Below are positions 14,997 to 43,800 of a stretch of DNA of 63,439 bases, one piece after another; position 1 is the stretch's first letter, and the number at the start of each line of letters is the position of its first letter. Both the position numbers and the translations under genes were made by a program. The stretch lies in the sequence record DRR378314_1256; one strand, written 5' to 3'. The notes beneath the pieces were generated by a model that saw nothing but the letters and a program-made list of their open reading frames with translations, had not been told where the DNA came from and ran no database searches.

Positions 14997-15055
14997 CCTG
15001 ACTCCCTTATTTCTAATTGTATTGGTTCCTGTGTGCCGGCTTTGCGCCCGGCACG

Positions 15056-21901: not shown

Positions 21902-22897
21902 TCAACCAGAGAGCAGTTCGATCGGATAACGAATAGTCGTCCTGTCGACACCCGGGCGGGAACCGAAATCCACCAGCCGCAGGCGGTTGCAGATTTTCTT
22001 CTCAAGGGCTGGCTCGTTCAGAGTGGATTCCACTACTGAACAGCTTGAGACCGCCCCACTCGACTCAATCACCAGTTCCGGCGTCACGCTGCCCTGCAGT
22101 GAAGGCTTACGGCGCAGTTCGCGGTTGTAGATGCTGTAGATGGCCGACTTGTTGGCGTCCATGGTGCGACGGAGCTCCTCGCGGCTGCGCTTGCTGGCAG
22201 CGGCCTGTTGCTCGCGCTCGGCGGCCTTCGCCTGGGCGACCACTTCTTCCGCTTCTTCCACTTGGGCTCGTTGCCGTTCCGCCAGCGCAACCTCGCGGGT
22301 TTCGCGGGTCAGGCCGGATTCATCCACGCCGGAGCTGCGGCCGGTGTTAGCCTTTTGTGCCAGGGTATCACCCGTCTTGCGGGCGATTGGTTCGGCCGTT
22401 GTGACGGTGGCCGGGGTGTCCAATTTGACGGATTTGCCCAGGGCACTCAGCTTGGAGAGCTCTTCGCCCATGGCGAGGATACCGGTGTTTTTTGCCTTTT
22501 CCCGGGCTTTTTCGACATCCTGCTGCGTGGGCTCCGGCTTCTCCGCCACCTGGGGCTCTGGTTCCGGTTCTGGCTCAGGTTCCGGCGCGGGCGGCTGTAC
22601 CTGGGGCTCGGGTTCGGCAACGGGTTGCTCTTCCGGTTCCGGCTTTTCGGGCTCAGGCTCGGGTTCCGGCGTTTTCAGTTCCGGGGGTGGTGGCGGTTCC
22701 TGTTTCTCAACAATCAGCTTGGCCAGTTGCGGCGGCAGGGCTTCACGCTCTTTGCGGTCCTGCTCCGGCAACTCAACCCAGGTGATGTACGCGGCCGCCA
22801 CAAGAAACAGCGGGACCACGAGGGTGGCAACCGCAAACAAGCGCTTGCGTTCTCCCGCCTCCTGATTCCAGGGCAATCCCTGACGATACTCTGCCAC
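21902..22897 (-). CDS. TonB-like energy transducer with AgmX/PglI C-terminal domain (GltG-like)
   Basis: N-terminal TM, long PEPEPE Pro-rich linker, C-terminal IYSIYNRELRRKPSLQG...IESSGAV domain. Confidence 0.8.
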   Translation of the reverse strand: MAEYRQGLPWNQEAGERKRLFAVATLVVPLFLVAAAYITWVELPEQDRKEREALPPQLAKLIVEKQEPPPPPELKTPEPEPEPEKPEPEEQPVAEPEPQVQPPAPEPEPEPEPEPQVAEKPEPTQQDVEKAREKAKNTGILAMGEELSKLSALGKSVKLDTPATVTTAEPIARKTGDTLAQKANTGRSSGVDESGLTRETREVALAERQRAQVEEAEEVVAQAKAAEREQQAAASKRSREELRRTMDANKSAIYSIYNRELRRKPSLQGSVTPELVIESSGAVSSCSVVESTLNEPALEKKICNRLRLVDFGSRPGVDRTTIRYPIELLSG

Positions 22898-22899
22898 AG

Positions 22900-23400
22900 C
22901 TAGGCTCCCTGCTCTGTTTTCTGGTTTACAGCCAGTGAAATACTGGCGTAGCCCGCGTCCACGCAGGTGGACATGATTTTCTTCAACAGCTCATAGGGCA
23001 GTTCGCGGTCGGCAAGGATGGTGATGGGCCGCCCTGCATCGGGTGCCGGTGCACCGGACCGGCTGGCCTGGTAATCCAGCTCCTCCTTCAGGGCGGGCTC
23101 TACCTGGCCACCGAAGGCCTGCAGAACCTCACGTTTCATCACCACACGGCCATTCACCAGGATATCGTTGTCCGTGACCGTCAGCGCGAGCACATCGCCC
23201 GGGGGCTGTTGGGCACTGGAGTCCGGCAGTTTGATGGCGTTGTCCTGGTTCAGCACCTGCACATCGGAGGATGAGTTCACCATCAGGAAGAACACCAGGA
23301 TGGTGAAGATGTCCATCAGCGACACCAGGTTCAGCTTGCTCTGTTGTTTGCCTCGCCGATGATGGCGCTTCAGGCGCTTGGCTTTCGCAGACTCTTTCAT
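22900..23400 (-). CDS. ExbD/TolR family protein (AglS-like)
   Basis: LNLVSLMDIFTILVFFL TM with Asp30; ILADRELPYELLKKIM. Confidence 0.9.
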   Translation of the reverse strand: MKESAKAKRLKRHHRRGKQQSKLNLVSLMDIFTILVFFLMVNSSSDVQVLNQDNAIKLPDSSAQQPPGDVLALTVTDNDILVNGRVVMKREVLQAFGGQVEPALKEELDYQASRSGAPAPDAGRPITILADRELPYELLKKIMSTCVDAGYASISLAVNQKTEQGA

Positions 23401-23894
23401 GACTGTTCAGCCCTCTTCGGTGCGTCACCCAGCGAGATCTCGGGGAACAGCTCAGCCTCGACCACATCACCGGCGACAACCGCTTCGTAAGAGCGCACCT
23501 TGTCCATGACCGACACCAACGTCTGATAGGAGGTGTCACTGGACGGCATAATGATGATGTTGCGCTTGTCCGGCAGCCTGCCCTTGAGCTCTTTCATGAC
23601 CTTACCGAGCATCTCGAAGTCGTGGGCCGCCTCGCGGTTGGCGATGGTCTTGATCACACCGCCCTGGTTGTCGGACACCACAAGCTGGTCTTCAAAGATG
23701 ACGACCTGTAGCTGGAGTTCTTTCTGTTCTTCAACGGAACTGCTGTCCACATCCGGAAAATTCAGTTCCAGCACGCTGGTGTGTGCAAACACCATATTCA
23801 GCAGCAGGACCGGAACCAGCACGATCATCAGGTTCATGAACGGTGTGATATCCAGGTCCGCTTCGCTGCGAAGCCGACGATGCTTACGCCTCAT
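23397..23894 (-). CDS. ExbD/TolR family protein (AglQ-like)
   Basis: LDITPFMNLMIVLVPVLL TM; SYQTLVSVMD. Confidence 0.88.
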   Translation of the reverse strand: MRRKHRRLRSEADLDITPFMNLMIVLVPVLLLNMVFAHTSVLELNFPDVDSSSVEEQKELQLQVVIFEDQLVVSDNQGGVIKTIANREAAHDFEMLGKVMKELKGRLPDKRNIIIMPSSDTSYQTLVSVMDKVRSYEAVVAGDVVEAELFPEISLGDAPKRAEQS

Positions 23895-23918
23895 GGCTCT
23901 AGCTCCCTGATTGAACCG

Positions 23919-24632
23919 TTACGCCACTGACCCGGCGGGGTTGGCTGCGCGGGAAGCGGGCTCTGCCGGACGGGCAGCGGCGGAGGCCGGTGCCTGGGGC
24001 CGTGCGCCGTTGCCGTCGGTGATCAGGTTCAGCACCTTGATGCCGGCCATCTCGAAGCTGTCGATGATTTCGTTGGTCTTGGTCTGGAGCACGGAGTGAA
24101 TCAGCAGCAGCGGGATCGCGGACATCAGGCCGAAGGCCGTGGTGTTCATCGCTACGGAGATACTCTGGGACAGCAGGCTTGCCTTCTGCGAAGGGTCCGC
24201 TGAAGCAACTGCCGTAAAGGCCGCGATCAGGCCGATGATGGTACCGAGCAGGCCCATCAGCGTGGAAATGTTGGCCAGGGTGGACAGGTACTGAGTGCGC
24301 TTCTCGAGGCGGGGCATGACTTCCAGAAGCCCCTCTTCCATCGCGTACTCGATCTCTTCCCGGGACTGGCGACGGGCCAGGCGCTGCAGGCCGAAACCGA
24401 TCATGGAGGCCATGGCACTGCCGGACTCCGTGGCATAGTTCAGCGCGCCCTTCAGATCCTTACCACCAATCATGTGGTGCAACCGGTTGAAATCCCGGCG
24501 GTTGGTGATCTTCTGGGCAGACAGGTAGATGTAACGTTCGGCGGCAACGATGAGTCCGATAATCAGCACGATGGCAATCGGATACATGAAAAAGCCACCT
24601 TCCTGGAAAAAGCGAACGGCGGTTTCAATCAT
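23919..24632 (-). CDS. MotA/TolQ/ExbB proton channel protein (AglR-like)
   Basis: GGFFMYPI, STLMGLLGTIIGLIAAF, ISVAMNTTAFGL; GGAG RBS before ATG 24632. Confidence 0.92.
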   Translation of the reverse strand: MIETAVRFFQEGGFFMYPIAIVLIIGLIVAAERYIYLSAQKITNRRDFNRLHHMIGGKDLKGALNYATESGSAMASMIGFGLQRLARRQSREEIEYAMEEGLLEVMPRLEKRTQYLSTLANISTLMGLLGTIIGLIAAFTAVASADPSQKASLLSQSISVAMNTTAFGLMSAIPLLLIHSVLQTKTNEIIDSFEMAGIKVLNLITDGNGARPQAPASAAARPAEPASRAANPAGSVA

Positions 24633-24767
24633 TTTCAGGGCACTCCATAGTCCGTATTTGCTGGCTAGTGTATGCGGCAACCGCCCCGGCGGGGGTAAGT
24701 TCACGCAAGTCTTTGTAGCGGTTTGTTTTTACATGCGTATGTGCACAGACAATGTGTGACACACGTC

Positions 24768-25085
24768 TCACTCTGACGTTGAGTCGGAACGTCCGGACAC
24801 CGTCGAATCCTCCGCTGAGGCGCGGAAATACTGATGATAGGACACCAGGCGCTGAAATTCCTGACGCTCCAGTGGTGCGATGGGGCGCTGGAGCATCAAC
24901 TGCTCGTCGGGCCGGGCCAGTGACTGCACCGCAGGCGCCTGCCAGGGCACCAGGTAGAGTACTGTGGGCACTTCCTGGTCCCCCCGGATTCGCGTGCCTT
25001 CGATCGTCACAACACCGTCCTGGGCGACGCAGGGGAATGCGATGATCAACAGCAACAGGCTGAGTAGGTGCTTTCTCGCGGTCAT
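24768..25085 (-). CDS. Small exported protein, GltF/CglF-like
   Basis: Signal peptide, IEGTRIRGDQEVPTVLY motif; position between TPR lipoprotein and motor. Confidence 0.6.
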   Translation of the reverse strand: MTARKHLLSLLLLIIAFPCVAQDGVVTIEGTRIRGDQEVPTVLYLVPWQAPAVQSLARPDEQLMLQRPIAPLERQEFQRLVSYHQYFRASAEDSTVSGRSDSTSE

Positions 25086-25681
25086 AAGCGGTTCCTGACA
25101 TCAAAGATCCAGTCCTCGAGGCGGGGATTCGGCTCTTCCGCCAACGACTGATACTGTTCGTAGAGAGGCAATGCCTCCTCCAGCCTGCCCAAATAGATAT
25201 CCAGCAGGATAGCCAGGTTCAGCATGGCCGGCAGGTGATTCGGGTCGGCCTCCAACGCCTGGCGGTAAAGGGTTTCCGCCTGTTCGAATTCGCCCTGCTC
25301 CCGTGCCATTACCCCGAGATGGGTCAACGCTGCGCTGTGTTGCGGGTCGCGCTCAAGAACCTGCCGGAAATACCCTTCAGCGGCGTCGGTGTTGCCCTCT
25401 TGCAGGGCAATAATGCCGAGATTGGCCAAGGGACCGGTTCGCTCTGGGTCGGCCTGATGGATCTGTTCGAACAGATCCCGCGCGTTATCGGTATCCCCAC
25501 CCCTGAGCAGGGCAACCGCCTCGCTGAAGTCCTGCGTTAACTCGGCCTCACGGGCCTGGCGTTCTTCCTCCGCCAGGTCTGCCGGGTCGGTTTTGGGCGA
25601 GGAGGCACAACCGGCCACCAGCACGACTGCCAGCAACAGGCCCACTCGCGTCCACCCCTGGAATGACCTAGCCCAGCTCAT
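25082..25681 (-). CDS. TPR lipoprotein (GltE-like)
   Basis: Lipobox VAGC followed by about 4 TPR repeats (NLGII, HLGVM, NLAILLD). Confidence 0.8.
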   Translation of the reverse strand: MSWARSFQGWTRVGLLLAVVLVAGCASSPKTDPADLAEEERQAREAELTQDFSEAVALLRGGDTDNARDLFEQIHQADPERTGPLANLGIIALQEGNTDAAEGYFRQVLERDPQHSAALTHLGVMAREQGEFEQAETLYRQALEADPNHLPAMLNLAILLDIYLGRLEEALPLYEQYQSLAEEPNPRLEDWIFDVRNRL

Positions 25682-28553
25682 CGACAACCTCTACGGTGAT
25701 TTCAGGTTTGTTGTAACGGCCTGGTAACAGGGTTTTCAGGGCCTCGTAACTGCGCTGAACCCATTCGTCGAAAATGCCGTTGCGGGCGCGGCTGGCGTTC
25801 TGTTCGTGGATATCGATGGCGTTGTCCTCAAACGGATAGGCCTGCTCTTCCAGCAATAGCTCGTACTGGGACAGTTCCAGCTCCGACAATCCTTCCGGGC
25901 GCTCAGACTCCATCAGGTCACGGCCGAGGCGCGCGTAGATGTGCGCAATCTGATAGCCAGCTTCGGTGGAGAAGGACGAAACGCCGTAACTCGCGGTTTT
26001 CTGGTAGGCAGTGACGGCCTCTTCCAGCGCTTCGGTCTTGGCGGCCATGCTTTGATTGAGCGGCAAGGTCAGGCGAATGCTGTCGTAATACGCCAGTGCT
26101 TCCCGGGCCAGAATGGCCGACGCCTCGGCCGCCAGGTAACGCATGCGGTCGTCCGCCTCGTCGGGATTGTCGTCCACGGTCTCCATCTGCTTCCTCAGCC
26201 AGAAACGGCGGCTGCTGTCGTCACCGATCTCCTGGTAAAGGCCGGCCAGGCTGTTGGCGGCTTCCATGTAGACATCCCGTGGTTCCGGGTAGGTATTGGC
26301 GTACCGCCGCCAGGTGTCGATGGCCTTGTTGGTGTTGCCCGCGCGCTCGTACAGGTCCGCGGCGATCAGCAGGTTCTCGCGCTTCTCCTCGTCCGTGGTT
26401 GCCATGGCAATCAGGTTGTTCAGCTCGTCCCCGGCTTTCTCCCACTGTTCGGTTTCTCGGTAGGCCAGTGCCAGCCTGGCCGGGATCGTATCGATCTGTT
26501 CATGGTTGGGATAACGGGACCGGAACGCCACCATTACGTCGATGGCATCCTGCCAGTGGCTGAGCTCGATCAGCAGGGTGGCGGCATCGTATTCGGCGTT
26601 GGCCCTCAGGCCCGAGGTGGGCGCAACCACGCCCACACGCAGGAACTCACTGACCGCGCCTGCGGTATCATCGGCATCCGCCAGGGCTTCCGCCTGACGG
26701 AAAACCGAGGCCGCCAGGCTTTCAATGACATCCGGTCGGCGCTCGTCAGTCTCCGACATGACCCGCAGCGTTTGTTGATAGGTGGTTTCCGCCTCGGCAT
26801 AGCGGCCCAGTTCAAACAGGCTGTGGGCTTTCAGCAACCCGGTTTCGGTCAGTATCTCCGCCCCGGGCGCGGGAACGCGGGCAATCATGCGGTTCGCCAT
26901 GTCCACCACTTGCGCGTAGCGATAGCGCTCGAATTCATGTTGCATGGCAATGTAGAGCACCTCTTCCGAGCGAGGGTCGTCGGGAAAGGCGTTCACGAAT
27001 CGCTGACGGTTCAGTTGCTGGAATTCGGCGTAGTCGTTGTAGGTTTCAACCGGCTCACGGGGCCAGGTCTTGGCGTATTCCCGGAAAGCCAGGACCGATG
27101 CGTAACCGGCCTCAGCGGCGCGTTCGGGTGGTTCGCCCTCCCACGGGAAATCATAGGCCACACGCTCAAAGGCTTCGATGGCGTCTGGCCACTGGGCCAG
27201 TTCCACATGGGTTTCACCCAGCAGGAACAACATCTCCGGTGTGCGCGGATGGGTCGGGAAGGTATCCGCGAAGGCCTCATAATAGACCGCAGCCTGTCGA
27301 TAATGCTCCTCCGATTCCACGCCTTCGGTCTCGCCCGCCAGCACATAGTGGCGATTGGCCAGCTCCGGAATCAGCTCTTCCAGTTGTTGCTGGATATAGA
27401 AAGCGGTCTCGTCATCGGCCTGTTGCAGATAGGCGCTATGAATGCCGTAATCCTGAACGAACGCCGCCTTGCGCTCCGGTATGTCAGCGGTGAAGCCGGC
27501 CTGTGCCAGGGTATCGATGATACGCATGTGGTATCGCGGCGCCCACGGGCTGCGTGGCCGGGCATCAATGTAGCGTTCGAACACGTCAATGGCGTCCGTG
27601 TACTGCTCCCGTTCCAGCAACAGCTCGCTGTAGCGGTCGTAGACCAGGATTTCGTAGGGTTTCTCGCCGGTCTCACGGAAGATCGCCTGCAATGTGTCCG
27701 CGCCGTCCAGGTAGGACAGTGACAGGCCAAACACGCGGAACAGGTCTTCCATCATAGTGCGGTATTCCTGACCGACGGATTCAACGTCCTGCTCCTCGGG
27801 CATCACCAGGTCCAGTACATTAATGTAGCTGAACAGGGCCTCCCGGTAGTCACTCTGCTTGAACTGGCTCCAGCCCAGCATGTAATGGGCGTTGACCAGG
27901 AACGAGGCGTCGTCCCTGCTTGCCGGGTCGGCGTCGATCACTGTGCGGAACGCCTGCTCAGCCTCGGCGTAACGGCGGTTGCTGAACAGCAGGTCACCGC
28001 GTCGGAACTGGGCCTCGACCCAGTATTTCGAGTCCGGATGCTCATTGACCAGGGTGGTCAGCGTAGCCAGGTGCTCTTCGCTCATGCCCCGCAGATCATA
28101 GGCTCGGGCCAGCTGGTACAGAACCTGGTCGTTGCCGGGGCGGTCCGGGTACTCCAACAACAGTTGTTCATAGGCCTCAATGGCCCCGGCCATATCATCC
28201 ACGGCGGTTTCAACCATCTTGTTTTCCGCACGCTGGAACTCCAGGTCCGCCAGCCGATGACGCACGGCAACCTGCTTCGCAGGATCTTCCAGCAGGGGCA
28301 GCAAGGCGCGGTAACTGTCCATCACCTCACCCAAGGATACGTCAGCGGCGACTTCTCCAGCCCGGTTGTCCGGCGCGGGCTCGATGGCTTCCTCCATGGA
28401 TTGAAGGGTGGCGAGAGTCCCCGGCTGGGGCTGTCTGTCATCACCCCCGCCAAACACGTCAGGCATTGAAAGCGATTGGCAACCCCCAAGGAGGCCGGCA
28501 AAAAGCACGGGCAGCAGGGCATCCAGGCGCCTGCGAATGACCGACTCAGTCAC
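25668..28553 (-). CDS. Large TPR lipoprotein (GltD/AgmU-like)
   Basis: GGAGG RBS then GTG 28553; lipobox LGGC; many TPRs; C-terminal YELLLEEQAYPFEDNAIDIHE segment. Confidence 0.8.
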   Translation of the reverse strand: MTESVIRRRLDALLPVLFAGLLGGCQSLSMPDVFGGGDDRQPQPGTLATLQSMEEAIEPAPDNRAGEVAADVSLGEVMDSYRALLPLLEDPAKQVAVRHRLADLEFQRAENKMVETAVDDMAGAIEAYEQLLLEYPDRPGNDQVLYQLARAYDLRGMSEEHLATLTTLVNEHPDSKYWVEAQFRRGDLLFSNRRYAEAEQAFRTVIDADPASRDDASFLVNAHYMLGWSQFKQSDYREALFSYINVLDLVMPEEQDVESVGQEYRTMMEDLFRVFGLSLSYLDGADTLQAIFRETGEKPYEILVYDRYSELLLEREQYTDAIDVFERYIDARPRSPWAPRYHMRIIDTLAQAGFTADIPERKAAFVQDYGIHSAYLQQADDETAFYIQQQLEELIPELANRHYVLAGETEGVESEEHYRQAAVYYEAFADTFPTHPRTPEMLFLLGETHVELAQWPDAIEAFERVAYDFPWEGEPPERAAEAGYASVLAFREYAKTWPREPVETYNDYAEFQQLNRQRFVNAFPDDPRSEEVLYIAMQHEFERYRYAQVVDMANRMIARVPAPGAEILTETGLLKAHSLFELGRYAEAETTYQQTLRVMSETDERRPDVIESLAASVFRQAEALADADDTAGAVSEFLRVGVVAPTSGLRANAEYDAATLLIELSHWQDAIDVMVAFRSRYPNHEQIDTIPARLALAYRETEQWEKAGDELNNLIAMATTDEEKRENLLIAADLYERAGNTNKAIDTWRRYANTYPEPRDVYMEAANSLAGLYQEIGDDSSRRFWLRKQMETVDDNPDEADDRMRYLAAEASAILAREALAYYDSIRLTLPLNQSMAAKTEALEEAVTAYQKTASYGVSSFSTEAGYQIAHIYARLGRDLMESERPEGLSELELSQYELLLEEQAYPFEDNAIDIHEQNASRARNGIFDEWVQRSYEALKTLLPGRYNKPEITVEVVDELG

Positions 28554-31133: not shown

Positions 31134-31153
31134 GTTGAATCGTCCCGACCTGG

Positions 31154-32543: not shown

Positions 32544-32561
32544 ACACTCACCTGCCTTGGG

Positions 32562-33062: not shown

Positions 33063-33074
33063 TGACTCCTGTTA

Positions 33075-34444: not shown

Positions 34445-34464
34445 GGTTAACCGTTCGGGTCCTA

Positions 34465-37113
34465 TCAGTCTGCCGGAGCATCAAAGGGGTTGTTGTAGTA
34501 CTGGCCACCGACATCAAGCCATTCGGCAATCAGGCGCAGCTCGGCCGGGGTGAGAAAGCCTTCGTGACTGCCCCCCCCACGGAACCGGTTGAAAAAATTG
34601 CCACTGGCGCGGGCGCCATTGACGGACATGGTGGGAGGTACGTTGACGTTCACCAGGATGGGGATGGGATTATCGTCATCATCCAGGATCAGCTCTCCGT
34701 CTTCGTCCCGCAGGAACTCCCCGGATTCGACCTGTACGTCAACCAGCTGGTCACCCATCAGTTCCTGTTCGTTGTCGTTAAACAACAACTCCCGATAGGA
34801 CTTGAAGTGATCCGGCTCATCCGACGAAGGACCATCACTGAGGTCCAGTTGCGCCTCCGGCAGTTGGGTCGCCTCATCCACGGCGGTATCCGAATGACAT
34901 CCCGTACAGGTGTAATCATCGATGTTGCCGGCCCCGTCATCAACGATTCTCTCGAGCCCCCACAACGGATGGATATGTTGCTCGTAATTGATGACCGTTC
35001 GACAGGCGCCGCGCCAGTCATCGGCGCATTCGGGACGAATCGGCGCGGGCGTATCAAGGTCTGCATAACTCAGCGAGAAGGCGGTGCCCGGTGTGAGACC
35101 GGCGTCACCGGGATCTGTCCACTGGTCGACGTAGACAGCATCTGGGCCAAGGCGACGGATTTCGTTCACCCGGGCCCAGGTTTCTGCCATGGTTTCACCC
35201 ATGTCAGCGAACAATGCGGGGTCGGTATTCGGGAATTCAATGCCAGTGGTCGGCGCGCCCGCGTAGACCGGGGCCGGCCCTGCATCCGGGCGGCCATGAG
35301 GCACCGCACTTCCAGGGTTATGGCAACCATTGCATGACAGGGTTTCTCCGGGCCGAACGTTCAACCAGTTCTGGTGGCGGGGCCCAATCCGACGCCCCTC
35401 ATCGTCCACCACGCTGATGGCAAACGCGACGTTAGCGGGCACAGCCACCCTAACGGATCCATCCGGCTCAACCGGCACGTACCCGAGAATCTCCCGCATC
35501 GACTGCGCCTGACTGCGGCCAAAGGCGGTGTTATCGAAGTCCCTGACCTCTTCATCAGGAATCGAGACCGGCTTCTCGAGGCGCAGAAAGCGCACGGGCA
35601 AGTCGTCAGCTGGAACAACCGCCGGGTTGGCGGTCTGGCCAATGCCCGCAGGAGACGTATCCACCCCATCAATGTCGTAGACACTGCGGATCTGGAGTAT
35701 GCCAAGACCGTCCTCGGCCAGCGTGGCCGCATCGCCGGAGAACTGAGATTCCGGAATAAACGTTGGCAGTGGCCTTGAGGCCATCAGTATCGCCTCGTCA
35801 AACTGTTGACCTTCTTCGGGCGACTGAATCGGACGCTGGGTGCCGGACGTCATATCCAGTAACCATAACCCGTAAACCGGGGCGGCGGCCCGGTAGGCAC
35901 CCGAGGCAATCCGTTCCTGAGTGCAGTTGAGGATATCGCCATCGCCATTGGCAAGCCTCAGCCGGCAAGGGCTCCAGCTAACGAGGTAGCGGCGGGTGCC
36001 ATCCAGAAACGGCGACACTGAACTGTAGTTTCCTCGCAACGAAATCTCGTTACCCAGAGACAATCCATTCACCAGCGACGTTTGTGCCGAGCCAGGGTTG
36101 CCGTCGACACGGATGCCTGCCTCGACATAATTCTCTACATCAATCTCTACCGGAACTGCCCCAAAGTTGTTGGTTTCGGTGGGCCGAAGCTGCGCCAGTA
36201 GTCGACCGGAATCCGTCGCTTGCGGGCGCAGATACTCAATGTTTACGTCATCGCTGACTGAGCCATGAGAGTGGCGACCATAAAGGTAACTGAGCCCGGT
36301 GCCGTCCGGGTTGACCTTGTAAAGATTGAACCCGTTGCCCTGGGTCTGGCCGGCGTTGTCCCAGCGGCTGAACACAATGGTGCCTTCATCCGTTACCAAT
36401 GGGTCCAGGTCGTGACTCTGGTTGAATGTGATCTGCTCGATGGTGTCTCCATCGGCACTCATCACGTGCAGGACGAAGGCGGGCACCTCACGTTCCTCGT
36501 CCAGTGCCGGATACTGGGGCTTGCCCTCGTCCAGAAGAATCGCGCGGGACACCCTTTGACGCGTGGATGAGAAGACGATGCGGCCGTCAGGCAGGTAGGC
36601 AGGCGCAATATCCTGGCCCGCCTCGGCGGTAACGTCAGAATCGATAACGCGGCGGAGATTGCCGGAAGCGACGTCGTACTCCCAGATGTTCCAGGTCGGC
36701 TGCTCGTCCTCATCGGCGTCTTCAATCTCCGGCGCCCTCATGGCGAAGAGAACCCGGGTGCCATCGAAGGACACGTTGAGATCCTTGACGTCGTAGCCAA
36801 GCGGTCCAGGGAACGCCGATGACGTGATATCACGCGATGGAGAGTCGGGAGACGCGCGATCCTTCAGGAACAGGCGTGCGCCGGGACGAAACTCCGCCGG
36901 TTCAGCCAGGTTGTCGCCGATAAGTGCGCCGTTATCCTCGTCAAAAAGCAGGGGGCGTTTTACAAAGACGACGGGATTTTCAACGACCACCGGGTCACTG
37001 GACTGACTATCGCCGCTTTGGAGACACCCTGCAGCCAGCGCAACAGGAAGAAGCGCGAAAACCCGGCCAACAACAGCCAGATAGCACCGTAACCCGCTGA
37101 CGCAAGAGGACAT
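34465..37113 (-). CDS. PD40 beta-propeller / hydrazine-synthase-alpha-like diheme lipoprotein (start uncertain, up to 37170)
   Basis: Lipobox AAGC; PAYLPDGRIVFSSTR and DPLVTDEGTIVFSRWD repeats; VEPDGSV...PGETLSCNGCH; second heme site CTGCH. Confidence 0.75.
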   Translation of the reverse strand: MSSCVSGLRCYLAVVGRVFALLPVALAAGCLQSGDSQSSDPVVVENPVVFVKRPLLFDEDNGALIGDNLAEPAEFRPGARLFLKDRASPDSPSRDITSSAFPGPLGYDVKDLNVSFDGTRVLFAMRAPEIEDADEDEQPTWNIWEYDVASGNLRRVIDSDVTAEAGQDIAPAYLPDGRIVFSSTRQRVSRAILLDEGKPQYPALDEEREVPAFVLHVMSADGDTIEQITFNQSHDLDPLVTDEGTIVFSRWDNAGQTQGNGFNLYKVNPDGTGLSYLYGRHSHGSVSDDVNIEYLRPQATDSGRLLAQLRPTETNNFGAVPVEIDVENYVEAGIRVDGNPGSAQTSLVNGLSLGNEISLRGNYSSVSPFLDGTRRYLVSWSPCRLRLANGDGDILNCTQERIASGAYRAAAPVYGLWLLDMTSGTQRPIQSPEEGQQFDEAILMASRPLPTFIPESQFSGDAATLAEDGLGILQIRSVYDIDGVDTSPAGIGQTANPAVVPADDLPVRFLRLEKPVSIPDEEVRDFDNTAFGRSQAQSMREILGYVPVEPDGSVRVAVPANVAFAISVVDDEGRRIGPRHQNWLNVRPGETLSCNGCHNPGSAVPHGRPDAGPAPVYAGAPTTGIEFPNTDPALFADMGETMAETWARVNEIRRLGPDAVYVDQWTDPGDAGLTPGTAFSLSYADLDTPAPIRPECADDWRGACRTVINYEQHIHPLWGLERIVDDGAGNIDDYTCTGCHSDTAVDEATQLPEAQLDLSDGPSSDEPDHFKSYRELLFNDNEQELMGDQLVDVQVESGEFLRDEDGELILDDDDNPIPILVNVNVPPTMSVNGARASGNFFNRFRGGGSHEGFLTPAELRLIAEWLDVGGQYYNNPFDAPAD

Positions 37114-37336
37114 TTTATTTTCGTAATGTTTAGTCACCACCAACGAACCCTGTTTGGCCTGAAAATCCATTTACATACGCTAAGTCGAGACGGGGCCTAT
37201 GCTCCAAGGCTTTTACGTAACGCTATGTAATAACGTGGAGCAGCCCTCAAAACCGCAGTTAATAGCTCGCCTAGACTTTAATCAATTGTAAAATGGTACT
37301 AATGTGCGAATGCTAACGAAATCGAGGGAATCGATC

Positions 37337-38590
37337 ATGACAGTCTTATGTACGACCCGGCAACTTATAAAAAGGACATTTTTACTCACTGTCCTGCTGG
37401 CTTTGGTCGGAACGCACGCTTCCATCGCAAGCGCTGGCCCCCGGGACCAGGCAAAACGTATCCATGAACGCATCGCCGGTGTTCCTCCTTCTCCGGAGGT
37501 GCTCGATCAGATGGCGGCAAATATAACCAACAATGGTGCGTCAGGCGCCGTTTCCGCCGCTTACACGGCCATGGAAGATCCAGCGTTTTACGATGTTACC
37601 CTCAAAAATTTCGTTGCACCATGGACAAATGAGGCGATGTCCCCCTTCGTGCCGTTGAATGATTACACGGCGACGGTCATTGGTATTGTGCGGGATAATC
37701 ATGATTTTAGACGCGTCTTATATGACGACATACTTTATGTCGGTAACGCCAGCCTGAACGGCATCTCGGCGTATTCAGCGTCGAACAACGACAACTATGA
37801 GGACCTTGAGCGCTCCGGTTACTCCCTCAGTGATGACAACGTGCTGGAACAAACCACGCAGTCCAGCCTGAATTCCGAATTGCCCACAGGCGCCACGGCC
37901 GGCGTGATCACCTCCCGGGCCGCTGCCCGTGCCTTTTTCAGCGCTGGCACCAACCGCGCTATGTTTCGGTTTACCTTGCTCAACCACATGTGCAACGACC
38001 TGGAACAGGTCGCAGACGTTTCACTGCCACCAGACCGCATCCGCCAGGATGTGTCTCGGAGCCCTGGCGGGGACAGCCGTGTGTTTCTGAGCAACTGCGT
38101 TGGCTGTCACACCGGCATGGACCCCATGACCCAGGCCTTCGCCTACTACGACTATCAGTACAACGCCGATACGGACCCTGACGGCGAGCTTGGCAGGCTG
38201 ATCTACAACTCTGTTAGCGACGTGGACCCGGAAACAGGTACCCGCGTTGTCGCCAAGTACCACATCAACTCGACCACGTTTGAGCAGGGGTACGTGACGC
38301 CGGACGATGGCTGGGATAACTACTGGCGGTCCGGCACCAATCGGCGCCTGGGCTGGGATGGTGCCCTGCCCGGCTCCGGTAACGGCGCCAAGAGCCTGGG
38401 GCGGGAGTTTGCCAATTCCGATGCCTTTGCCCAGTGCCAGGTGAAAAAAGTATTCCGCAATGTCTGCCTGCGAGAGCCTTCAAACGACAGTGATCGCTCA
38501 AAGATTAGCGAAATCGTTTCGAGTTTCCGCAGCGGGTACAACCTTAAAACTGCCTTTGCGGAATCTGCCGCGTATTGCCGGGGGGAGTAG
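37337..38590 (+). CDS. Exported monoheme c-type cytochrome with DUF1585/DUF1588-like features
   Basis: GAGG RBS, signal peptide, AGVITSR, CVGCHTGMDP, C-terminal FAQCQVKKVF...GYNLKTAF. Confidence 0.65.
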   Translation: MTVLCTTRQLIKRTFLLTVLLALVGTHASIASAGPRDQAKRIHERIAGVPPSPEVLDQMAANITNNGASGAVSAAYTAMEDPAFYDVTLKNFVAPWTNEAMSPFVPLNDYTATVIGIVRDNHDFRRVLYDDILYVGNASLNGISAYSASNNDNYEDLERSGYSLSDDNVLEQTTQSSLNSELPTGATAGVITSRAAARAFFSAGTNRAMFRFTLLNHMCNDLEQVADVSLPPDRIRQDVSRSPGGDSRVFLSNCVGCHTGMDPMTQAFAYYDYQYNADTDPDGELGRLIYNSVSDVDPETGTRVVAKYHINSTTFEQGYVTPDDGWDNYWRSGTNRRLGWDGALPGSGNGAKSLGREFANSDAFAQCQVKKVFRNVCLREPSNDSDRSKISEIVSSFRSGYNLKTAFAESAAYCRGE

Positions 38591-38596
38591 GACATT

Positions 38597-41116
38597 ATGA
38601 AAACCATAATCAGTAAAGGAACCCGAGCCCCCGCTGCGCTGTTCTCCGTTTTTGCTGCCCTGCTCTTTCTTGCGGGCTGTAACAGTGGCGAATCCACCGA
38701 AGCCCTTCCAAACACCGGCGGCGGCTCCAATACCGTTAGCTATAGCGGCCCGCCTCCCGCCAGCGACGATGTACTGAATTTCAAACGCAGCGTGTGGGAT
38801 GAGCTTTCAGGCCAGAACAAGTGCGGCGCCTGCCACAACGCCGGCGGCCAGTCACCTCAGTTTGTGCATGAGGGCGACATCAACATCGCCTACGCCCAGG
38901 CCAAAACCATTGTTAACCTGTCCGACCCGTCCCAGTCCGAGATGGTGACCAAGGTCGCCGGTGGCCACAACTGCTGGACGACGTCCGTCACTGCCTGTAC
39001 TGACCTGCTGACAGTCTATATCTCCAATTGGGCCGGTGGCTCTGAAGGGTCGGTGAAGACCGTGGAATTGCGGGCGCCGGATATCAACGAAGTTAACGAC
39101 ACGCTGACGTTTCCGGATGATCCATCAATATTTCAAAGCACTATCTATCCGGTCTTGACCGACTACTGCAGCGAGTGCCACACCAGCAATGGCCAGACGC
39201 CTTACATTGCCAGCACGGATGTCCAAACGGCGTACGACCAGGCCAAAAGCCGGATCGACCTGAACGACCGGGCACCTGAAGTGGGTCTTGAAGATGCGTC
39301 TTCGCGGCTGGTTGAACGGCTCCGGGATGACAGCCATAACTGTTGGGATAACGACTGCGTTGAGTCGTCCATCGTGATGCTGGCGGCGATACAGAATTTC
39401 ATTGCTGATCTCGGAGAGCCCGAGCCAATCCCCGCAAACCTCGTGACCAGCAAAGCTCTGAATCTGGCCGATGACGGCTTGCTGGCCAATGCCGGCGGCC
39501 GATACGAAGACAACGTCATCGCGCTGTACGAGTTCAAAGCAGGCGACGGCCCAACGGCCTTTGACACCAGCGGTATTTCCCCACCTCTGGACTTGACGCT
39601 CAGCGGCAACGTCGGCTGGGTCGGTGGCTGGGGTATTGATATTGGCCCGGCCTTTGAAACCGAAGAAGGCGACATGATTCGCGCCGGCAAGGCGCAAGGC
39701 TCCACAGCGAACAGCCGCAAACTGCACACCCTGCTGACCGCCTCCGGCGAGTACGCCATCGAAGCATGGGTGGTACCCGGCAACATCACCCAGGAAGACT
39801 CCCGTATCGTGACCTACTCCGGCTCTTCGACAGCACGCAATTTCACGCTGGGCCAGGACATGCAGAGCTACGAGTTCCTGCATCGGAGCACCACCACCGA
39901 CCAGAACGATCCAATGCTGACTGAAGCCAACCCCATGCTGTTGCAGGCGACGTTGCAACACGTGGTGGTGAACTTTACACCGGACGGTGGCCGCGAAATA
40001 TTCGTGAATGGCGAACCCTCAGGCGATGTCGACCCGGATTCCGCCGGCCTGCTGACCGACTGGGACGACAGTTTCGCCCTGGTCCTGGGCAATGAGACGG
40101 ACGGTGAATCGCCCTGGGAAGGCGCCGTCAGGATGCTGGCCATCCACGACCGTGCCCTCACCGCAGAGCAGGTTGCCGCCAACTACGACGTGGGCGTTGG
40201 CCAGAAGTTCTTCCTGCTGTTCAGCGTATCCCATCTGGTGGATATGCCGGAAAGCTTTATCGTCTTTGAGGTCAGTCAGTTCGACAACTACGGCTATTTG
40301 TTCTCAAATCCGTTCTTCATCAGCCTCGACGAGACCCAGTCTCCATCGGGCATAGCATTGAAGGGCATGAGAATAGGCATCAACGGCCGCGAAGTGGTGG
40401 TCGGCCAGTCGTTCGCCAATCTGGACGTCACGCTGAATGCCAGCGATTACGTGGCAGGCTCCGGTCAGCCTCTGTCGAGACTCGGCACGGTTCTCGCGCT
40501 GGAGGAAGGCCCGGAAAGCGATCAGTTCTTCCTGACCTTTGAACAGCTCGGCAGCAACACAGACGTCCGAGTGGAAGGCCCTGCCCCGACACAGCCACCA
40601 GAAACCGGTAGCACGGAATTCTCCGCCATCGGCCTGAAGACGTTTGACGAAGTGAATGCCTCCATGTCGAAAGTAACGGGTATTCCCACGACTCAGCCGG
40701 CCGTTGCCGCGACGTTCACGACCGTGAAGCAACAGTTGCCAACGGTAGAGGATCTGGAAGGCTTCCTGTCATCCCATCAAATGGCCATTACGCAGATGGC
40801 GATCCAGTACTGTGATGCCCTGGTGTCGGATTCCACACGACGCACCGCCTTCTTCCCCGGCTTTAACTTCGGTGAGAGCGCTGGCACCGCGTTTGACGAC
40901 GCTGGTCGGTCGCTCATCAAGACGCCGTTGATGGAGAAATTCGTCGGCACAAGCCTGAGTACTCAACCCGCGGATGCGGACATTGAAACCGAGCTGGACG
41001 CCCTGATGGGACGCCTCACCACCTGTGGTGGTAGCTGCCCTGCCGGCCGTACCGAAACCGTTGTCAAAGCAAGCTGCGCAGCCGTACTGGGCAGCGCCGT
41101 GACACTGATTCAGTAG
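38597..41116 (+). CDS. Diheme cytochrome c / LamG-domain lipoprotein
   Basis: Lipobox LAGC; CGACH and CSECH; LamG pattern (ALYEF, AIEAWV, QHVVV, IHDRALTAEQV). Confidence 0.75.
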   Translation: MKTIISKGTRAPAALFSVFAALLFLAGCNSGESTEALPNTGGGSNTVSYSGPPPASDDVLNFKRSVWDELSGQNKCGACHNAGGQSPQFVHEGDINIAYAQAKTIVNLSDPSQSEMVTKVAGGHNCWTTSVTACTDLLTVYISNWAGGSEGSVKTVELRAPDINEVNDTLTFPDDPSIFQSTIYPVLTDYCSECHTSNGQTPYIASTDVQTAYDQAKSRIDLNDRAPEVGLEDASSRLVERLRDDSHNCWDNDCVESSIVMLAAIQNFIADLGEPEPIPANLVTSKALNLADDGLLANAGGRYEDNVIALYEFKAGDGPTAFDTSGISPPLDLTLSGNVGWVGGWGIDIGPAFETEEGDMIRAGKAQGSTANSRKLHTLLTASGEYAIEAWVVPGNITQEDSRIVTYSGSSTARNFTLGQDMQSYEFLHRSTTTDQNDPMLTEANPMLLQATLQHVVVNFTPDGGREIFVNGEPSGDVDPDSAGLLTDWDDSFALVLGNETDGESPWEGAVRMLAIHDRALTAEQVAANYDVGVGQKFFLLFSVSHLVDMPESFIVFEVSQFDNYGYLFSNPFFISLDETQSPSGIALKGMRIGINGREVVVGQSFANLDVTLNASDYVAGSGQPLSRLGTVLALEEGPESDQFFLTFEQLGSNTDVRVEGPAPTQPPETGSTEFSAIGLKTFDEVNASMSKVTGIPTTQPAVAATFTTVKQQLPTVEDLEGFLSSHQMAITQMAIQYCDALVSDSTRRTAFFPGFNFGESAGTAFDDAGRSLIKTPLMEKFVGTSLSTQPADADIETELDALMGRLTTCGGSCPAGRTETVVKASCAAVLGSAVTLIQ

Positions 41117-41122
41117 AGGACG

Positions 41123-42685
41123 TTGACCATGTATATCAAACCTTCTCGCAAACGTGCACTGGCGACGGATCAACCTCTCCTGCACAGCGATCACGCAAGG
41201 CCGAAAACCCGGCGTGAGTTCATCGCCCAGGGCTTTATGACGGGCGCAGCGACGCTCTGCGGAGCCTCTATATTCAGCCTGTTTGCCAACCCACGGCAGG
41301 CGGCCGCGGCGTTGTCTCCAGACCTTGAGGACTGGAAGGAATCGTGCGGTATCGCGTCGGCCGGCGCGGGCAAGATTCCCTTTATCTGCTTTGACCTGGC
41401 GGGCGGTGCCAACATCGCCGGTTCGAACGTTCTGCTGGGCAAATCCGGTGGCCAGTTCGACTTCTTGAGCACGGCCGGCTACAACAAGCTGGGGTTACCG
41501 GGCACCATGCTGCCCAATGATCCCGCGTTCGTAAACCAGGAGTTCGGCCTGGCGTTCCATTCCGACAGCGGATTCCTGCGGGGCATGCAGGACAGCACGT
41601 CGGTCGCCGCCCGAGGTTTCATCAATGGTGCCATCATTGCCGCCCGCTCCGAGAACGACACCGGCAATAACCCCCATAACCCGATGTACGGCATCAGCAA
41701 GGCGGGCGCGGACGGCGAACTGCTCACACTCGTAGGCTCTCAGAGCTCCGAGAGTGGCGGCAACTCCATGGCCCCCATGAACCTCATCAACCCTCAGGTG
41801 CGCCCCACCAAGATTGACCGCCCGAGCGACGTTTCAGGCCTGGTGGATGTGGGCGACCTGACGGCCATTCTGGATCAGGACGATGCGGTTGCGGTGATGG
41901 AATCCATCCAGCGCATCAGCCGTAAGAAGCTGGACAATGTAAACACCACGCTCGTCACACGAGACGATGTGGTGAAAGACCTCGTCAACTGCGGCTATGT
42001 CAAAAGCGCGGACCTGACCGAGCGCTTTGCCGACCCGTCCTCTATCGACCCGTCTCAGGATACCGATATCGTGGGAGGCATTTTCACCGAGGCCCAGTTC
42101 AACGAAAACTCGCGCCTGGGCCGGGAAATCCGCAAAACCGCCGCGGTGATGAAACTGGTCCAGAACGGCTACGCCGGCGCCGGTACCGTCACCCTGGGTG
42201 GGTACGATTACCACACCGGCGAGCGGGGCACCGGTGAAGAGCGGGACTATTTGGCGGGCCGCTGCATGGGCGCTTGTCTGGAATACGCCCACCGAACACA
42301 AACACCACTGATGCTGTACGTGTTCAGTGATGGCTCGGTCTCAAGTAATGGTCGGCTGGACGAGTCCATGGCCGGGCGCGGCAAGGGCGAGTGGACTGGC
42401 GACAACCAGCAGACAGCTGCATCGTTCTTCCTGGTCTACAGCCCGGCAGGCCAACCCACGGCGCTGACCAACCAGATTGGCTTTATGCGTTCTGACGCCT
42501 CTGTGGAAACCGCCTCAAGCCCTGCGGCCAATAACGTGAACCAATTGGTGCAAACGGTGCTGCTCAACTACATGGCCCTGCACGGAGAACAGGGCATGTT
42601 CGAGAACGCCGACAGATTCCCCAACCACGGCCTCGGGAATCAAAACAGCCGGGATCGGCTTATCGCCCTCCAGCCGATTGTGTAA
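41123..42685 (+). CDS. Tat-exported DUF1501/DUF1552-like protein
   Basis: TRREFI twin-arginine motif, h-region and AAA cleavage site; CFDLAGGAN and GGYDYH motifs. Confidence 0.65.
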   Translation: MTMYIKPSRKRALATDQPLLHSDHARPKTRREFIAQGFMTGAATLCGASIFSLFANPRQAAAALSPDLEDWKESCGIASAGAGKIPFICFDLAGGANIAGSNVLLGKSGGQFDFLSTAGYNKLGLPGTMLPNDPAFVNQEFGLAFHSDSGFLRGMQDSTSVAARGFINGAIIAARSENDTGNNPHNPMYGISKAGADGELLTLVGSQSSESGGNSMAPMNLINPQVRPTKIDRPSDVSGLVDVGDLTAILDQDDAVAVMESIQRISRKKLDNVNTTLVTRDDVVKDLVNCGYVKSADLTERFADPSSIDPSQDTDIVGGIFTEAQFNENSRLGREIRKTAAVMKLVQNGYAGAGTVTLGGYDYHTGERGTGEERDYLAGRCMGACLEYAHRTQTPLMLYVFSDGSVSSNGRLDESMAGRGKGEWTGDNQQTAASFFLVYSPAGQPTALTNQIGFMRSDASVETASSPAANNVNQLVQTVLLNYMALHGEQGMFENADRFPNHGLGNQNSRDRLIALQPIV

Positions 42686-42690
42686 TCCGA

Positions 42691-42719
42691 TGTGGCCGGG
42701 CCTGCGGGTCCCGGCCACA
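42691..42719. terminator. Hairpin between convergent genes
   Basis: TGTGGCCGGG...CCCGGCCACA 10-bp inverted repeat. Confidence 0.6.
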
Positions 42720-42729
42720 CCTCCCGGTA

Positions 42730-43722
42730 TCAAGAACCCTCCGGCGCCATTAACCCGTCCGAATAATGCACCTGACGCTGCTCATCGATGATGATGGCAT
42801 CGATACCCTCCAGTCGATTAATCATCTCCAGGCCCTTGGCTGATCCCAGCACAAAGACCGCCGTGGACAAACCATCGGTTGTGATGCTGTCGTCGCCGAG
42901 GATGGTCACACTCTGCACGCCTTTTACCGGTTTGCCGGTCGCTGGCGAGAGAATGTGATGGACACGCTCGTGGTTGTCGTCGAAAAAGAAGCGTTCGTAA
43001 TCGCCTGACGTCGACACCGCCACGTTGGTCAGCGGCAGGACCATGGCGTTGCGTGATTCAGATCGGGGGTCCCGGATACCTACTATCCATGGCTTGCCAC
43101 GCTTGTCACCCAGAAGCCGCAGGTCGCCCCCGGCGCTCAATCGTGCCTGGCGAATGCCGAAGGATTTAAGGATGTCGATACCGCGATCAACCGCATATCC
43201 CTTGGCAATGCCTCCGAGATCCAGCCTGATGCCTTCATCAAGAAATCGGACGGTGTTGGCGTTGGGGTCCAGCACCACGGACTTGTAATTCACCTTTGAC
43301 AGTCCCTCCGCCAGTTCTTCATCGGAGGGCTGTTGCCTGGCGCGAAAATCGTACAGGTAGCCGACGGACCCGAAACTGATGTCGAAAGCGCCGTTGCTCA
43401 ATTCGGAAATACGCAGAGCCTGCTGAAGCACAGTAAACAAGCTGTCGCTCACTTCCACTGGCCCGTTGGCCGCCTCGCGATTCACCCGGGACAGCTCGGA
43501 ATCCTCCCGGTAACGGCTCATCTGGTGGTCAATGCGGTCGAACATCGCCAGTACCGCGTCTCCGGCCTCACTGGCCGCGGCCGGATCCTCGGACCAGAAC
43601 TCCATCTCGATGGCAGTGGTCATTGCCGTACCGCTCACACGCACCCATTCGGCCTGGGCTGGCATGGCCACGGTCAGCAGCATGGCCAACCCCCATGCCA
43701 ACGTCCGTGCAACTACCCGCAT
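42730..43722 (-). CDS. apbE: FAD:protein FMN transferase (start uncertain, 43683-43743)
   Basis: GAFDIS, LDLGGIAKGYAVD, AGGD, STSGDYER, HHILSPATG, DGLSTA. Confidence 0.93.
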   Translation of the reverse strand: MRVVARTLAWGLAMLLTVAMPAQAEWVRVSGTAMTTAIEMEFWSEDPAAASEAGDAVLAMFDRIDHQMSRYREDSELSRVNREAANGPVEVSDSLFTVLQQALRISELSNGAFDISFGSVGYLYDFRARQQPSDEELAEGLSKVNYKSVVLDPNANTVRFLDEGIRLDLGGIAKGYAVDRGIDILKSFGIRQARLSAGGDLRLLGDKRGKPWIVGIRDPRSESRNAMVLPLTNVAVSTSGDYERFFFDDNHERVHHILSPATGKPVKGVQSVTILGDDSITTDGLSTAVFVLGSAKGLEMINRLEGIDAIIIDEQRQVHYSDGLMAPEGS

Positions 43723-43800
43723 ACTAAACCGTCCGTTGCTCACTGCCCGCCCTCGTTTCGATAACCGTGTTCTGATCGTTGTGGTTGATGCCAACCCCCG

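Follow-up and report, generated by a model that had tools for sequence, protein, structure and literature searches.

Glt/Agl-type core genes are co-conserved with a candidate outer-membrane redox module in Marinobacter and other gammaproteobacteria

The 63,439-nucleotide stretch of DNA studied here (sequence record DRR378314_1256; "the window" below means this whole stretch) carries 19 envelope genes between positions 21902 and 43806, as defined by the list of open reading frames (ORFs), Pfam and NCBIfam searches and signal motifs. We propose that they encode a single two-block system energised by the proton-motive force (PMF), in which a motor core of the Glt/Agl type (block A) serves an outer-membrane redox module (block B), and we put the probability of this reading at roughly 0.4. 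That the two blocks belong to one system is likely in its own right, and this case is strong because the blocks are co-conserved and stay together through rearrangement. Co-conservation, gene content and motifs are read directly from the genomes; PMF-driven redox work at the outer membrane is the function we infer from them.

The host is a Marinobacter, as the GltC-like protein is 91-92% identical to proteins of M. salarius and other Marinobacter in a protein search. Neighbouring genes abut or overlap, and their products comprise three inner-membrane motor proteins, a single-pass arm, lipoproteins, one Tat substrate and further proteins with signal peptides. Lipoboxes are present in the HZS (hydrazine synthase)-like, LamG, DUF4266 and GltE-like proteins and, after a corrected start, in the GltD-like protein. 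Block A has the order (ApbE)-unk183-GltC-GltD-GltE-small protein-ExbB-ExbD-ExbD-GltG. Block B is divergent: cytochrome, LamG and Tat520 genes (hereafter the trio) run one way, and genes for the HZS-like lipoprotein, SH3-barrel, OMP_myx_plus barrel, TlpA, DUF4266 and the DUF3570-like barrel run the other. An initial annotation had described 19 contiguous envelope genes here with these domains. Pfam, NCBIfam and motif searches recovered all of its ORFs and families, and its end point of 43722 is corrected to 43806, the start of apbE.

Co-occurrence of the two blocks

We searched an even sample of 301 gammaproteobacterial genomes for Tat520, the HZS-like lipoprotein, the GltC-like protein and the DUF3570 family PF12094. 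Tat520 occurred in 37 genomes, the HZS-like lipoprotein in 39 and PF12094 in 67. GltC-like proteins were present in at least 62 of 300, a floor value given that one genome went unscored and four candidates were scored per genome. Among these related genomes, a GltC-like protein accompanies Tat520 in 35 of 37 cases and, by comparison of the tables, the HZS-like lipoprotein in 38 of 39. Genome G049 is the exception in both comparisons, and the other Tat520 exception, G007, has a partial match at a contig end. Where Tat520 and GltC share a contig (24 matches), 23 lie within 30 kb of each other; the remaining one is 195 kb off and 43% identical. The initial annotation had staked its proposal on co-conservation of the motor with the haem and ApbE genes. 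This holds for the GltC marker in the above counts and across at least three arrangements, and fails for the motor genes themselves in some otherwise complete loci, to which we return below.

A second set was anchored on GltC, for which we collected 1087 representative relatives at E<=1e-3. The broad GltC alignment (A1) contained no stretch conserved enough for a locus scan; 80 loci, with 10 kb on each side, were therefore chosen by one peptide pattern from a narrower alignment (A2) and are biased towards relatives. They derive from Marinobacter, other Oleiphilaceae, Hahella, Steroidobacteraceae and metagenome-assembled genomes (MAGs) of Cellvibrionaceae, Acidiferrobacteraceae and Wenzhouxiangella. 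At least one block B gene was detected in 75 of the 80 by tblastn with the 19 window proteins. Of the other five, four have fewer than 700 bases upstream of GltC, and one (L062) has block B on another contig of its genome.

Arrangements of the locus

Full regions from 9, 11 and 3 further genomes were taken for comparison of gene order. Block B is joined to block A by its DUF3570 end in the window, in G117, G167 and G058 and in Marinobacter, Oleiphilaceae and Hahella loci, and by its Tat520 end in G174, G187, G181, G287 and Steroidobacteraceae loci. It lies 2, 9 or 17 kb from block A in three genomes (G062, G262 and G267), on another contig in G003 and split over three places in G292. The distance from DUF3570 to Tat520 is about 9-10 kb in both orientations, which indicates that block B is itself a coherent unit. 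To judge from these comparisons, shared ancestry alone would be hard put to explain a partnership that is kept at 24-28% GltC identity despite inversion and separation.

ApbE accompanies one block or the other. Its gene directly precedes unk183 in seven genomes (G287, G262, G062, G267, G167, G058 and L062/G003) and the HZS-like gene in three (G170, G224 and G155); it follows Tat520 in the window and G117, and lies beyond DUF3570 in G181. Overall it was found within the locus or next to it in 7 of 9 and 5 of 11 further genomes, plus L062, and was not found in the examined stretches of G174 and G187. In the window 10.4 kb separate it from DUF3570, to which it is adjacent in other genomes. Comparison of the reduced loci identifies the HZS-like lipoprotein, the two small barrels and the DUF3570-like barrel as constant partners, with the trio as an optional add-on.

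Several loci show features of their own. In four trio-less loci (G170, G224, G155 and G077; L114, L116, L119 and L123) the roughly 1 kb that separates the HZS-like from the SH3-barrel gene matches none of the 19 proteins and may hold an additional gene. In the complete genome of M. salarius R9SW1 (L004/G001) the GltC-like gene lies in three frames, the HZS-like gene breaks near residue 696, a TGA occurs within the OMP_myx_plus barrel gene and the open frame of the DUF3570-like gene spans only 200 aa; either sequencing frameshifts or decay of the locus would account for these broken genes. A Hahella genome (G004; L112-L113, positions 4306000-4346000) has a second Glt-like set with its own motor 20 kb from a motor-less set with block B. 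Within about 5 kb upstream of unk183 in the second set are two VWA-domain proteins of 403 and 748 aa, the former immediately upstream; their position beside a Glt-like set recalls CglB, the VWA adhesin of Myxococcus. The AglRQS motor serves both the Glt and the Nfs machines, and motor-less sets may possibly use a shared motor.

A core-linked subfamily of DUF3570 barrels

The DUF3570-like gene (31154-32323, minus strand) encodes a divergent outer-membrane barrel that matches PF12094 with 126.7 bits against a cut-off of 25, over model positions 112-379 only. Across the 301 genomes PF12094 matches separate into two groups. Thirty-six canonical matches (160-446 bits) cover the whole model, and no contig that carries one also has GltC or Tat520; one of the 36 comes from G044, a genome in the sample flagged as unpublished. 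Fifty matches score below 160 bits (about 80-155), mainly over model positions 100-385. GltC or Tat520 is found on the same contig for 37 of the fifty, at no more than 30 kb for 36, and the remaining 13 comprise nine in fragmented genomes with GltC elsewhere and four in genomes with no GltC match. Three canonical loci (L138-L140) have the order TlpA-(DUF4266)-DUF3570-ApbE, as published.

In the text portions of Meheust 2021 (PMC8238504) used here, canonical DUF3570 proteins are described as flavinylated by ApbE at two [S/T]GA[S/T] motifs, their function being called uncertain. Among 67 core-linked DUF3570-like sequences the motif V-D-x-V-S-[A/S/G]-A-S-V-D is nearly invariant, with A in 52, S in 12 and G in 2 at the variable position; in the window it reads D-x-V-S-A-A-S-V-D (residues 77-85). 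It aligns with D-x-L-T-G-A-S-P-N in two of the three canonical proteins, and the presumed acceptor Ser is kept. No second conserved motif of the [S/T]GA[S/T] type was seen in the 67 sequences, which thus depart from the canonical two-motif pattern. A T-G-A-T in the monohaem protein was considered as a second flavinylation site and dropped, its first two positions not being conserved.

An AlphaFold2 model built from a 35-sequence alignment has a pLDDT score of 88.6 and 18 strands, and Foldseek matches it to the outer-membrane barrels PelB, FadL, AlgE and PgaA. The barrel starts about five residues past the signal peptide and has no plug domain. Short and long strand connections alternate, and the motif falls on the long-loop side, in the 15 residues that connect beta3 to beta4. 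If the N-terminus is periplasmic, as is usual, this side of the model would face outwards or fold into the lumen, and flavinylation would then have to come before barrel insertion. Modification of a signal-less, insoluble DUF3570 protein by ApbE is reported in the portions of Meheust 2021 (PMC8238504) cited above, and pre-insertion flavinylation of the core-linked subfamily, proposed by analogy, would fit it.

Proteins of block A

All block A genes lie on the minus strand. The ExbB/TolQ-like proton channel (23919-24704; PF01618 MotA_ExbB, E 2e-28) resembles AglR, and two ExbD/TolR-like stator subunits (subunit 1, 23397-23894, PF02472 E 8e-16; subunit 2, 22900-23400, PF02472 E 2e-17) resemble AglQ/S. 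For these motor proteins the NCBIfam equivalogs of TolQ, ExbB, TolR and ExbD all scored under their cut-offs. The ExbB and two ExbD genes are contiguous with genes for tetratricopeptide repeat (TPR) proteins, the arrangement that marks the motor of an Agl/Glt core complex. A TonB/TolA-like protein of the GltG type (21902-22897) has an N-terminal transmembrane helix, a Pro/Glu-rich linker and an AgmX/PglI C-terminal domain. This domain reaches 66 bits in NF033768, whose cut-off is 40; over the full length, the GltG equivalog NF033760 reaches 45 bits against 650, so the protein is not a GltG equivalog.

The periplasmic part comprises three TPR proteins. A GltC-like TPR/coiled-coil protein (28546-30591; NF033756 GltC, 24 bits against a cut-off of 450) served as our block A marker. 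The GltD-like long TPR lipoprotein (25668-28694) matches 17 TPR-type families and has a lipobox, LLGGC, after an internal start; Pfam and NCBIfam searches returned generic TPR families for it and no GltD model. As listed, its ORF overlaps the GltC-like gene by 149 nt, and its translation suggests that the true start is probably at about 28559, just ahead of the lipoprotein signal. The GltE-like TPR lipoprotein (25082-25687) matches TPR families, has the lipobox VAGC and scores 49 bits in NF033758 against a cut-off of 225. Size, order and lipoboxes agree with the Glt core, and the GltC and GltE equivalog scores are far under the cut-offs. In some relatives (L052, L053 and L068 from Marinobacter; P0136, P0146, P0151 and P0187) the GltC-like and GltD-like proteins are fused into one of about 1500-1560 aa, a sequence feature that supports the view that the two act together.

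Two small exported proteins complete the block. One, of 105 aa (24768-25085), has a signal peptide and no Pfam or NCBIfam match; it is kept after the GltE-like gene in related loci and occupies the position of gltF in Myxococcus, an equation made by position alone. The other, unk183 (30582-31133), matches no Pfam or NCBIfam family; in every core locus examined, plain cores included, it immediately precedes the GltC-like gene. Its AlphaFold2 model (pLDDT 81) consists of a long helix and a beta-sandwich, a fold with no PDB match at E<=1e-3 that suggests no function. The available portions of Luciano 2011 (PMC3169522) define a "core complex" as gltC, D, E and G with aglR, Q and S and one extra gene, and unk183 is probably this extra gene. 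The same source bears out the initial annotation, which had drawn a parallel with the Glt/Agl core of Myxococcus and noted that such cores occur in proteobacteria that do not glide. Among the NCBIfam Glt models, none for gltA, B, F, H, I, J or K or for CglB matched the locus at E<=1e-3, and the barrels gave matches to TIGR04565 only.

Proteins of block B

Downstream of the HZS-like gene on the minus strand lie two small barrels and two thiol proteins. One barrel protein joins an SH3 domain to a small outer-membrane barrel (33692-34444; SH3_4 E 5e-6; OMP_b-brl and TIGR04565 under cut-off). The other (33075-33722) belongs to the OMP_myx_plus family, with 150 bits in TIGR04565 against a cut-off of 60, and has an N-terminal extension of about 30 residues that are nearly invariant in 23 sequences. 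The TlpA/ResA-type periplasmic thiol-disulfide oxidoreductase (32562-33062; Redoxin E 9e-31) contains a CGPC motif, and its CXXC is present in 76 of 76 sequences. The DUF4266 lipoprotein (32304-32543; PF14086 E 2e-22) has a lipobox and ends in CGCN, as do 61 of 61 sequences. ApbE, an exported FAD:protein FMN (flavin mononucleotide) transferase (42730-43806, minus strand; PF02424 E 5e-84), has a plain signal peptide and no lipobox. ApbE, DUF3570, TlpA and DUF4266 all exceed their Pfam cut-offs and together make up the gene set of a flavinylation module.

Haem attachment sites are invariant throughout. The HZS-alpha-like lipoprotein (34465-37170, minus strand) combines PD40/beta-propeller matches with HZS_alpha's middle domain (PF18582, E 3e-16), a lipobox and two CXXCH sites, found in 68 of 68 and 66 of 66 of the sequences covering each site. 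On the plus strand, the monohaem exported protein (37304-38590) has one CXXCH, kept in 65 of 65 sequences, and a C-terminus resembling PSD2 (DUF1585); in its family, PSD2 matches 16 of 20 members (best E 8.5e-6) and PSCyt3 weakly matches 5 of 20. The dihaem LamG lipoprotein (38597-41116, plus strand; Laminin_G_3 E 7e-20; lipobox) has two CXXCH sites, each present in 48 of 48 covering sequences. Tat520 (41123-42685, plus strand), a Tat-exported protein of 520 aa with the motif TRREF, keeps its twin arginines in 21 of 21 sequences. Its 20 members match no Pfam family besides TAT_signal at E<=0.01, and sequence and profile searches gave no PDB match. The Atlas lists DUF1501-bearing clusters near Tat520 at 0.92, which makes kinship with DUF1501 a lead only.

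Boundaries and transcription

On one side the flanking genes encode GFA, a kinase, an SSF symporter and a MalT-type regulator, and on the other alpha-amylase and MalK; their functions are unrelated, and the locus is thus sharply bounded. The divergent runs are separated by an intergenic region at 37171-37303, and a scan for consensus promoters and terminators found no signal above shuffled sequences. RNA-seq contigs from relatives (85-93% alike; four libraries from four studies) cover 29-30 of 30 bins of 22800-42700 and span the junction of blocks A and B, contigs of this kind being unable to show transcripts or levels and possibly deriving from DNA in the libraries. The small word shares of these libraries give no pointer to habitat. 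In one run (X1) an 18-kb contig has a depth of 171 over 30178-42700 and the contigs over 22800-30163 a depth of about 16, with the break about 420 nt inside the GltC-like gene; as contig depths cannot rank genes, the step is only a hint of differential expression of the blocks. Elsewhere in the window, positions 12323-18874 encode a FadL/TodX-type outer-membrane protein, a 336-aa unknown ORF, a C39 peptidase-like protein and a divergent MalT/LuxR-type regulator, all unrelated to the locus.

Proposed mechanism and alternatives

We propose that block A supplies an ExbB/ExbD/ExbD proton motor, a GltG arm, GltC/D/E-like proteins as a scaffold in the periplasm and two small exported proteins, and that block B would be its dedicated outer-membrane module, made up of two small barrels, the 18-strand DUF3570 barrel, the dihaem propeller lipoprotein and, in loci of this class, also the trio. 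By analogy with Myxococcus, a motor of the ExbB5-ExbD2 type would bind the transmembrane helix of GltG, whose arm would reach the GltD/E/C scaffold under the outer membrane; GltC would dock on the small barrels, and the beta-propeller lipoprotein would be handled at the surface. ApbE would place FMN on the conserved Ser of the S-A-A-S motif before barrel insertion, TlpA and the CXC lipoprotein DUF4266 would feed or maintain thiol-based reducing power, and FMN and two to five haems could form a redox relay at the outer membrane. Acting via GltG and the TPR scaffold, the motor would energise the module, perhaps in its assembly, its gating or the surface exposure of the haem lipoprotein, much as Glt unmasks CglB. 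We infer, in this scheme, flavinylation of the subfamily, every protein contact, the direction of electrons, the substrate and the task of the motor, and the specific relay and gating are doubtful.

Several observations weigh against this proposal. Since the sampled genomes are related, fewer independent events lie behind the co-occurrence than the counts suggest. Ten otherwise complete loci (L030, L048, L054, L057, L059, G174, G187, G117, G077 and G274) have no motor genes beside them. The trio is missing in G170, G224 and G155, and also in G077 and G274, which lack TlpA and DUF4266 as well. Plain cores of the form unk183-GltC-GltD-GltE-motor-GltG occur without block B in G013, G030 and G299 and as the second core of G001. 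In G049 (L130-L132) the trio lies beside mere fragments of the HZS-like gene, with no core found and ApbE 17 kb away, and this is possibly either a decaying locus or a true exception with a stand-alone trio. Contacts between block A and block B proteins are postulated, and the sole complex prediction (SH3-barrel, OMP_myx_plus barrel and residues 36-600 of the GltC-like protein) scored 0.00, a value that weighs neither way. Flavinylation is predicted from a motif in which 52 of 67 sequences have Ala at the Gly position of canonical ApbE sites, and the motif loop would, by standard barrel topology, point outwards whereas ApbE is periplasmic. Tat520 has no recognisable redox family in Pfam or PDB profile searches. 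Every redox interpretation also faces the finding that no inner-membrane electron carrier (DsbD/CcdA or quinol dehydrogenase) was detected by family searches in the locus or its flanks, which places the electron source or sink outside the locus, and has a substrate that is conjectural.

Among the alternatives, a Glt-like core might insert, expose or move the haem lipoproteins (HZS-like and LamG) via or past the small barrels as a surface-display machine, with redox chemistry belonging to the cargo only and the flavin barrel and thiol proteins serving cargo maturation. In the parts of the Myxococcus literature drawn on here, the barrels GltA/B/H have GltC beneath them and a surface-exposed beta-propeller lipoprotein, CglB, and the core docks on outer-membrane barrels. 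The locus has comparable elements in two small barrels, one of them OMP_myx_plus with its N-terminal extension, and a beta-propeller lipoprotein, and the second Glt set of Hahella has VWA proteins just upstream. We nevertheless consider display unlikely as the whole function: the barrels match no NCBIfam Glt model at E<=1e-3, a surface location of the lipoproteins is an assumption, and pure display leaves unexplained why an 18-strand flavin-motif barrel is linked to the core as tightly as the lipoprotein is. In a more far-reaching version of the redox proposal, which we hold to be quite unlikely, powering an outer-membrane redox machine, and not motility, would be the ancestral job of the Glt/Nfs core, and the locus would represent a new class of apparatus. 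Here a TolQRA-like motor would gate or position, via the TPR scaffold, the flavinylated barrel and the dihaem propeller lipoprotein, and electrons would pass from thiol to flavin to haem, or in reverse, across or at the outer membrane on demand.

Energised uptake is improbable. As in Ton-dependent transport, the GltG arm would open an outer-membrane barrel, either the DUF3570-like one or a small one, to admit a substrate such as a metal, and the haem, flavin and thiol proteins would reduce or process it. The locus does have ExbB, ExbD and a TonB-like C-terminal domain, an iron transporter accompanies some canonical DUF3570 clusters in the portions of Meheust 2021 (PMC8238504) considered here, and parts of the literature draw a Tbp/Ton parallel for Glt. 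For the 19 proteins, however, Pfam and NCBIfam searches gave neither a plug family nor a TonB-dependent receptor, the latter absence already noted in the initial annotation; the predicted barrel begins soon after its signal peptide and has no plug domain, and family searches of the 19 proteins and flanks gave neither DsbD nor an inner-membrane transporter. It is very improbable that the Glt core, the DUF3570/ApbE module and the cytochrome/Tat trio are two or three unconnected systems which only happen to be neighbours. Each part can be found alone (the four plain cores, the canonical clusters L138-L140 and the G049 trio), and the blocks can lie on separate contigs (G003 and G292). Against this stand the co-occurrence of 35/37 and 38/39, a linkage that outlasts inversion of block B relative to block A, a DUF3570 subfamily essentially confined to core loci, and an ApbE gene that often directly precedes unk183 in block A, its presumed substrate lying in block B.

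Novelty and implications

The initial annotation called the machine undescribed. This stands for the combination of blocks and not for its parts, since the core complex and the ApbE-DUF3570-DUF4266-thioredoxin module are each in print; what is new is a Glt/Nfs-type machine joined to a new outer-membrane module. We found no paper joining the Glt core to DUF3570, HZS-like or haem genes, and supplementary tables of Meheust 2021 and Luciano 2011 may list such neighbourhoods. The main text of Meheust 2021 (PMC8238504) does not mention ExbB, tetratricopeptide, gliding or beta-barrel, and in their accessible portions neither this text nor that of Luciano 2011 (PMC3169522) was found to mention the other system.

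The role of the Glt core outside gliding bacteria has been a question since 2011. In the portions of Luciano 2011 (PMC3169522) cited here, the function of the core complex is left open, the complex is said to be insufficient for motility, and its study in gammaproteobacteria is expected to help explain the gliding and sporulation machines. In many gammaproteobacteria, as we find, the core comes with a fixed outer-membrane set of two small barrels, a flavin-motif barrel, a dihaem propeller lipoprotein, ApbE and thiol proteins, and this partnership gives an orphan motor its first testable job. It ties the question of the Glt core to that of DUF3570 flavinylation, and both can be tested in Marinobacter, which is culturable and non-pathogenic. 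If the motor does drive outer-membrane redox chemistry, this would be a new use of 5:2 ion-driven motors.

Comparison with known systems

Single components recall systems of other kinds. Planctomycete-type PSCyt/PSD proteins pair with Tat-exported DUF1501 proteins; the PSD2 match of the monohaem protein is alike, whereas Tat520 matches no Pfam family but TAT_signal, and the comparison serves as a lead only. The HZS-like lipoprotein shares with hydrazine synthase alpha the middle domain (the Pfam match above; PDB 5c2v_A, E 2e-9), a PD40/propeller region before it and a second haem site after it. It differs in that only about 65 residues align, NF052339 scores 59 bits against a cut-off of 800, beta and gamma subunits are absent and the protein is a lipoprotein. 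Porin-cytochrome conduits such as MtrCAB combine an outer-membrane barrel with haem proteins that move electrons across the outer membrane. The locus is alike in concept, with an outer-membrane barrel and haem lipoproteins, but has no decahaem protein, five haem sites in three proteins, an attached proton-driven motor and a predicted 18-strand barrel that would carry covalent flavin.

With TonB-ExbB-ExbD and Tol-Pal the locus shares a channel of the MotA/TolQ/ExbB family, ExbD/TolR subunits and a Pro-rich arm whose C-terminal domain is TonB-like; unlike them, it has a large TPR scaffold in place of a plug-containing receptor, Pal and TolB. Clusters of ApbE, DUF3570, a thioredoxin-like protein and a DUF4266 protein ending in CXC are described as "DsbD systems" in the available parts of Meheust 2021 (PMC8238504). 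The same four families, the CXC end of DUF4266 and a motif aligned with the canonical site recur in the locus, whereas its barrel is divergent and has one motif, mostly S-A-A-S, no DsbD lies nearby, and the genes are embedded among barrels, haem proteins and the Glt core.

A close likeness is to the core of the Agl-Glt gliding and Agl-Nfs spore-coat machineries of Myxococcus xanthus, of which an ExbB-like protein, two ExbD-like proteins, a GltG-type tail, a long TPR protein, a TPR lipoprotein and a GltC-like protein stand in one operon. Luciano 2011 (PMC3169522), in the portions used, reports the core complex as a single unit in gammaproteobacteria, clustered in one region in several of them and in Geobacter, and names two Marinobacter with duplications. 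The locus agrees in having the extra gene absent from Myxococcales and in the duplication, with two copies found in G001; like Nfs, some relatives of the locus have no motor of their own. The N-terminal extension of the OMP_myx_plus barrel recalls the unstructured N-termini of GltA/B, which in the partial published account may contain a TonB box. Unlike the Myxococcus Agl-Glt machine, the locus is without GltH, I, J, K and CglB, and its GltG-like protein has no FHA domain. It also differs from the Glt and Nfs machines, as far as the cited portions describe them, in the outer-membrane partners of the core: a DUF3570 barrel with a flavin motif, a beta-propeller lipoprotein with two haems, thiol proteins and ApbE.

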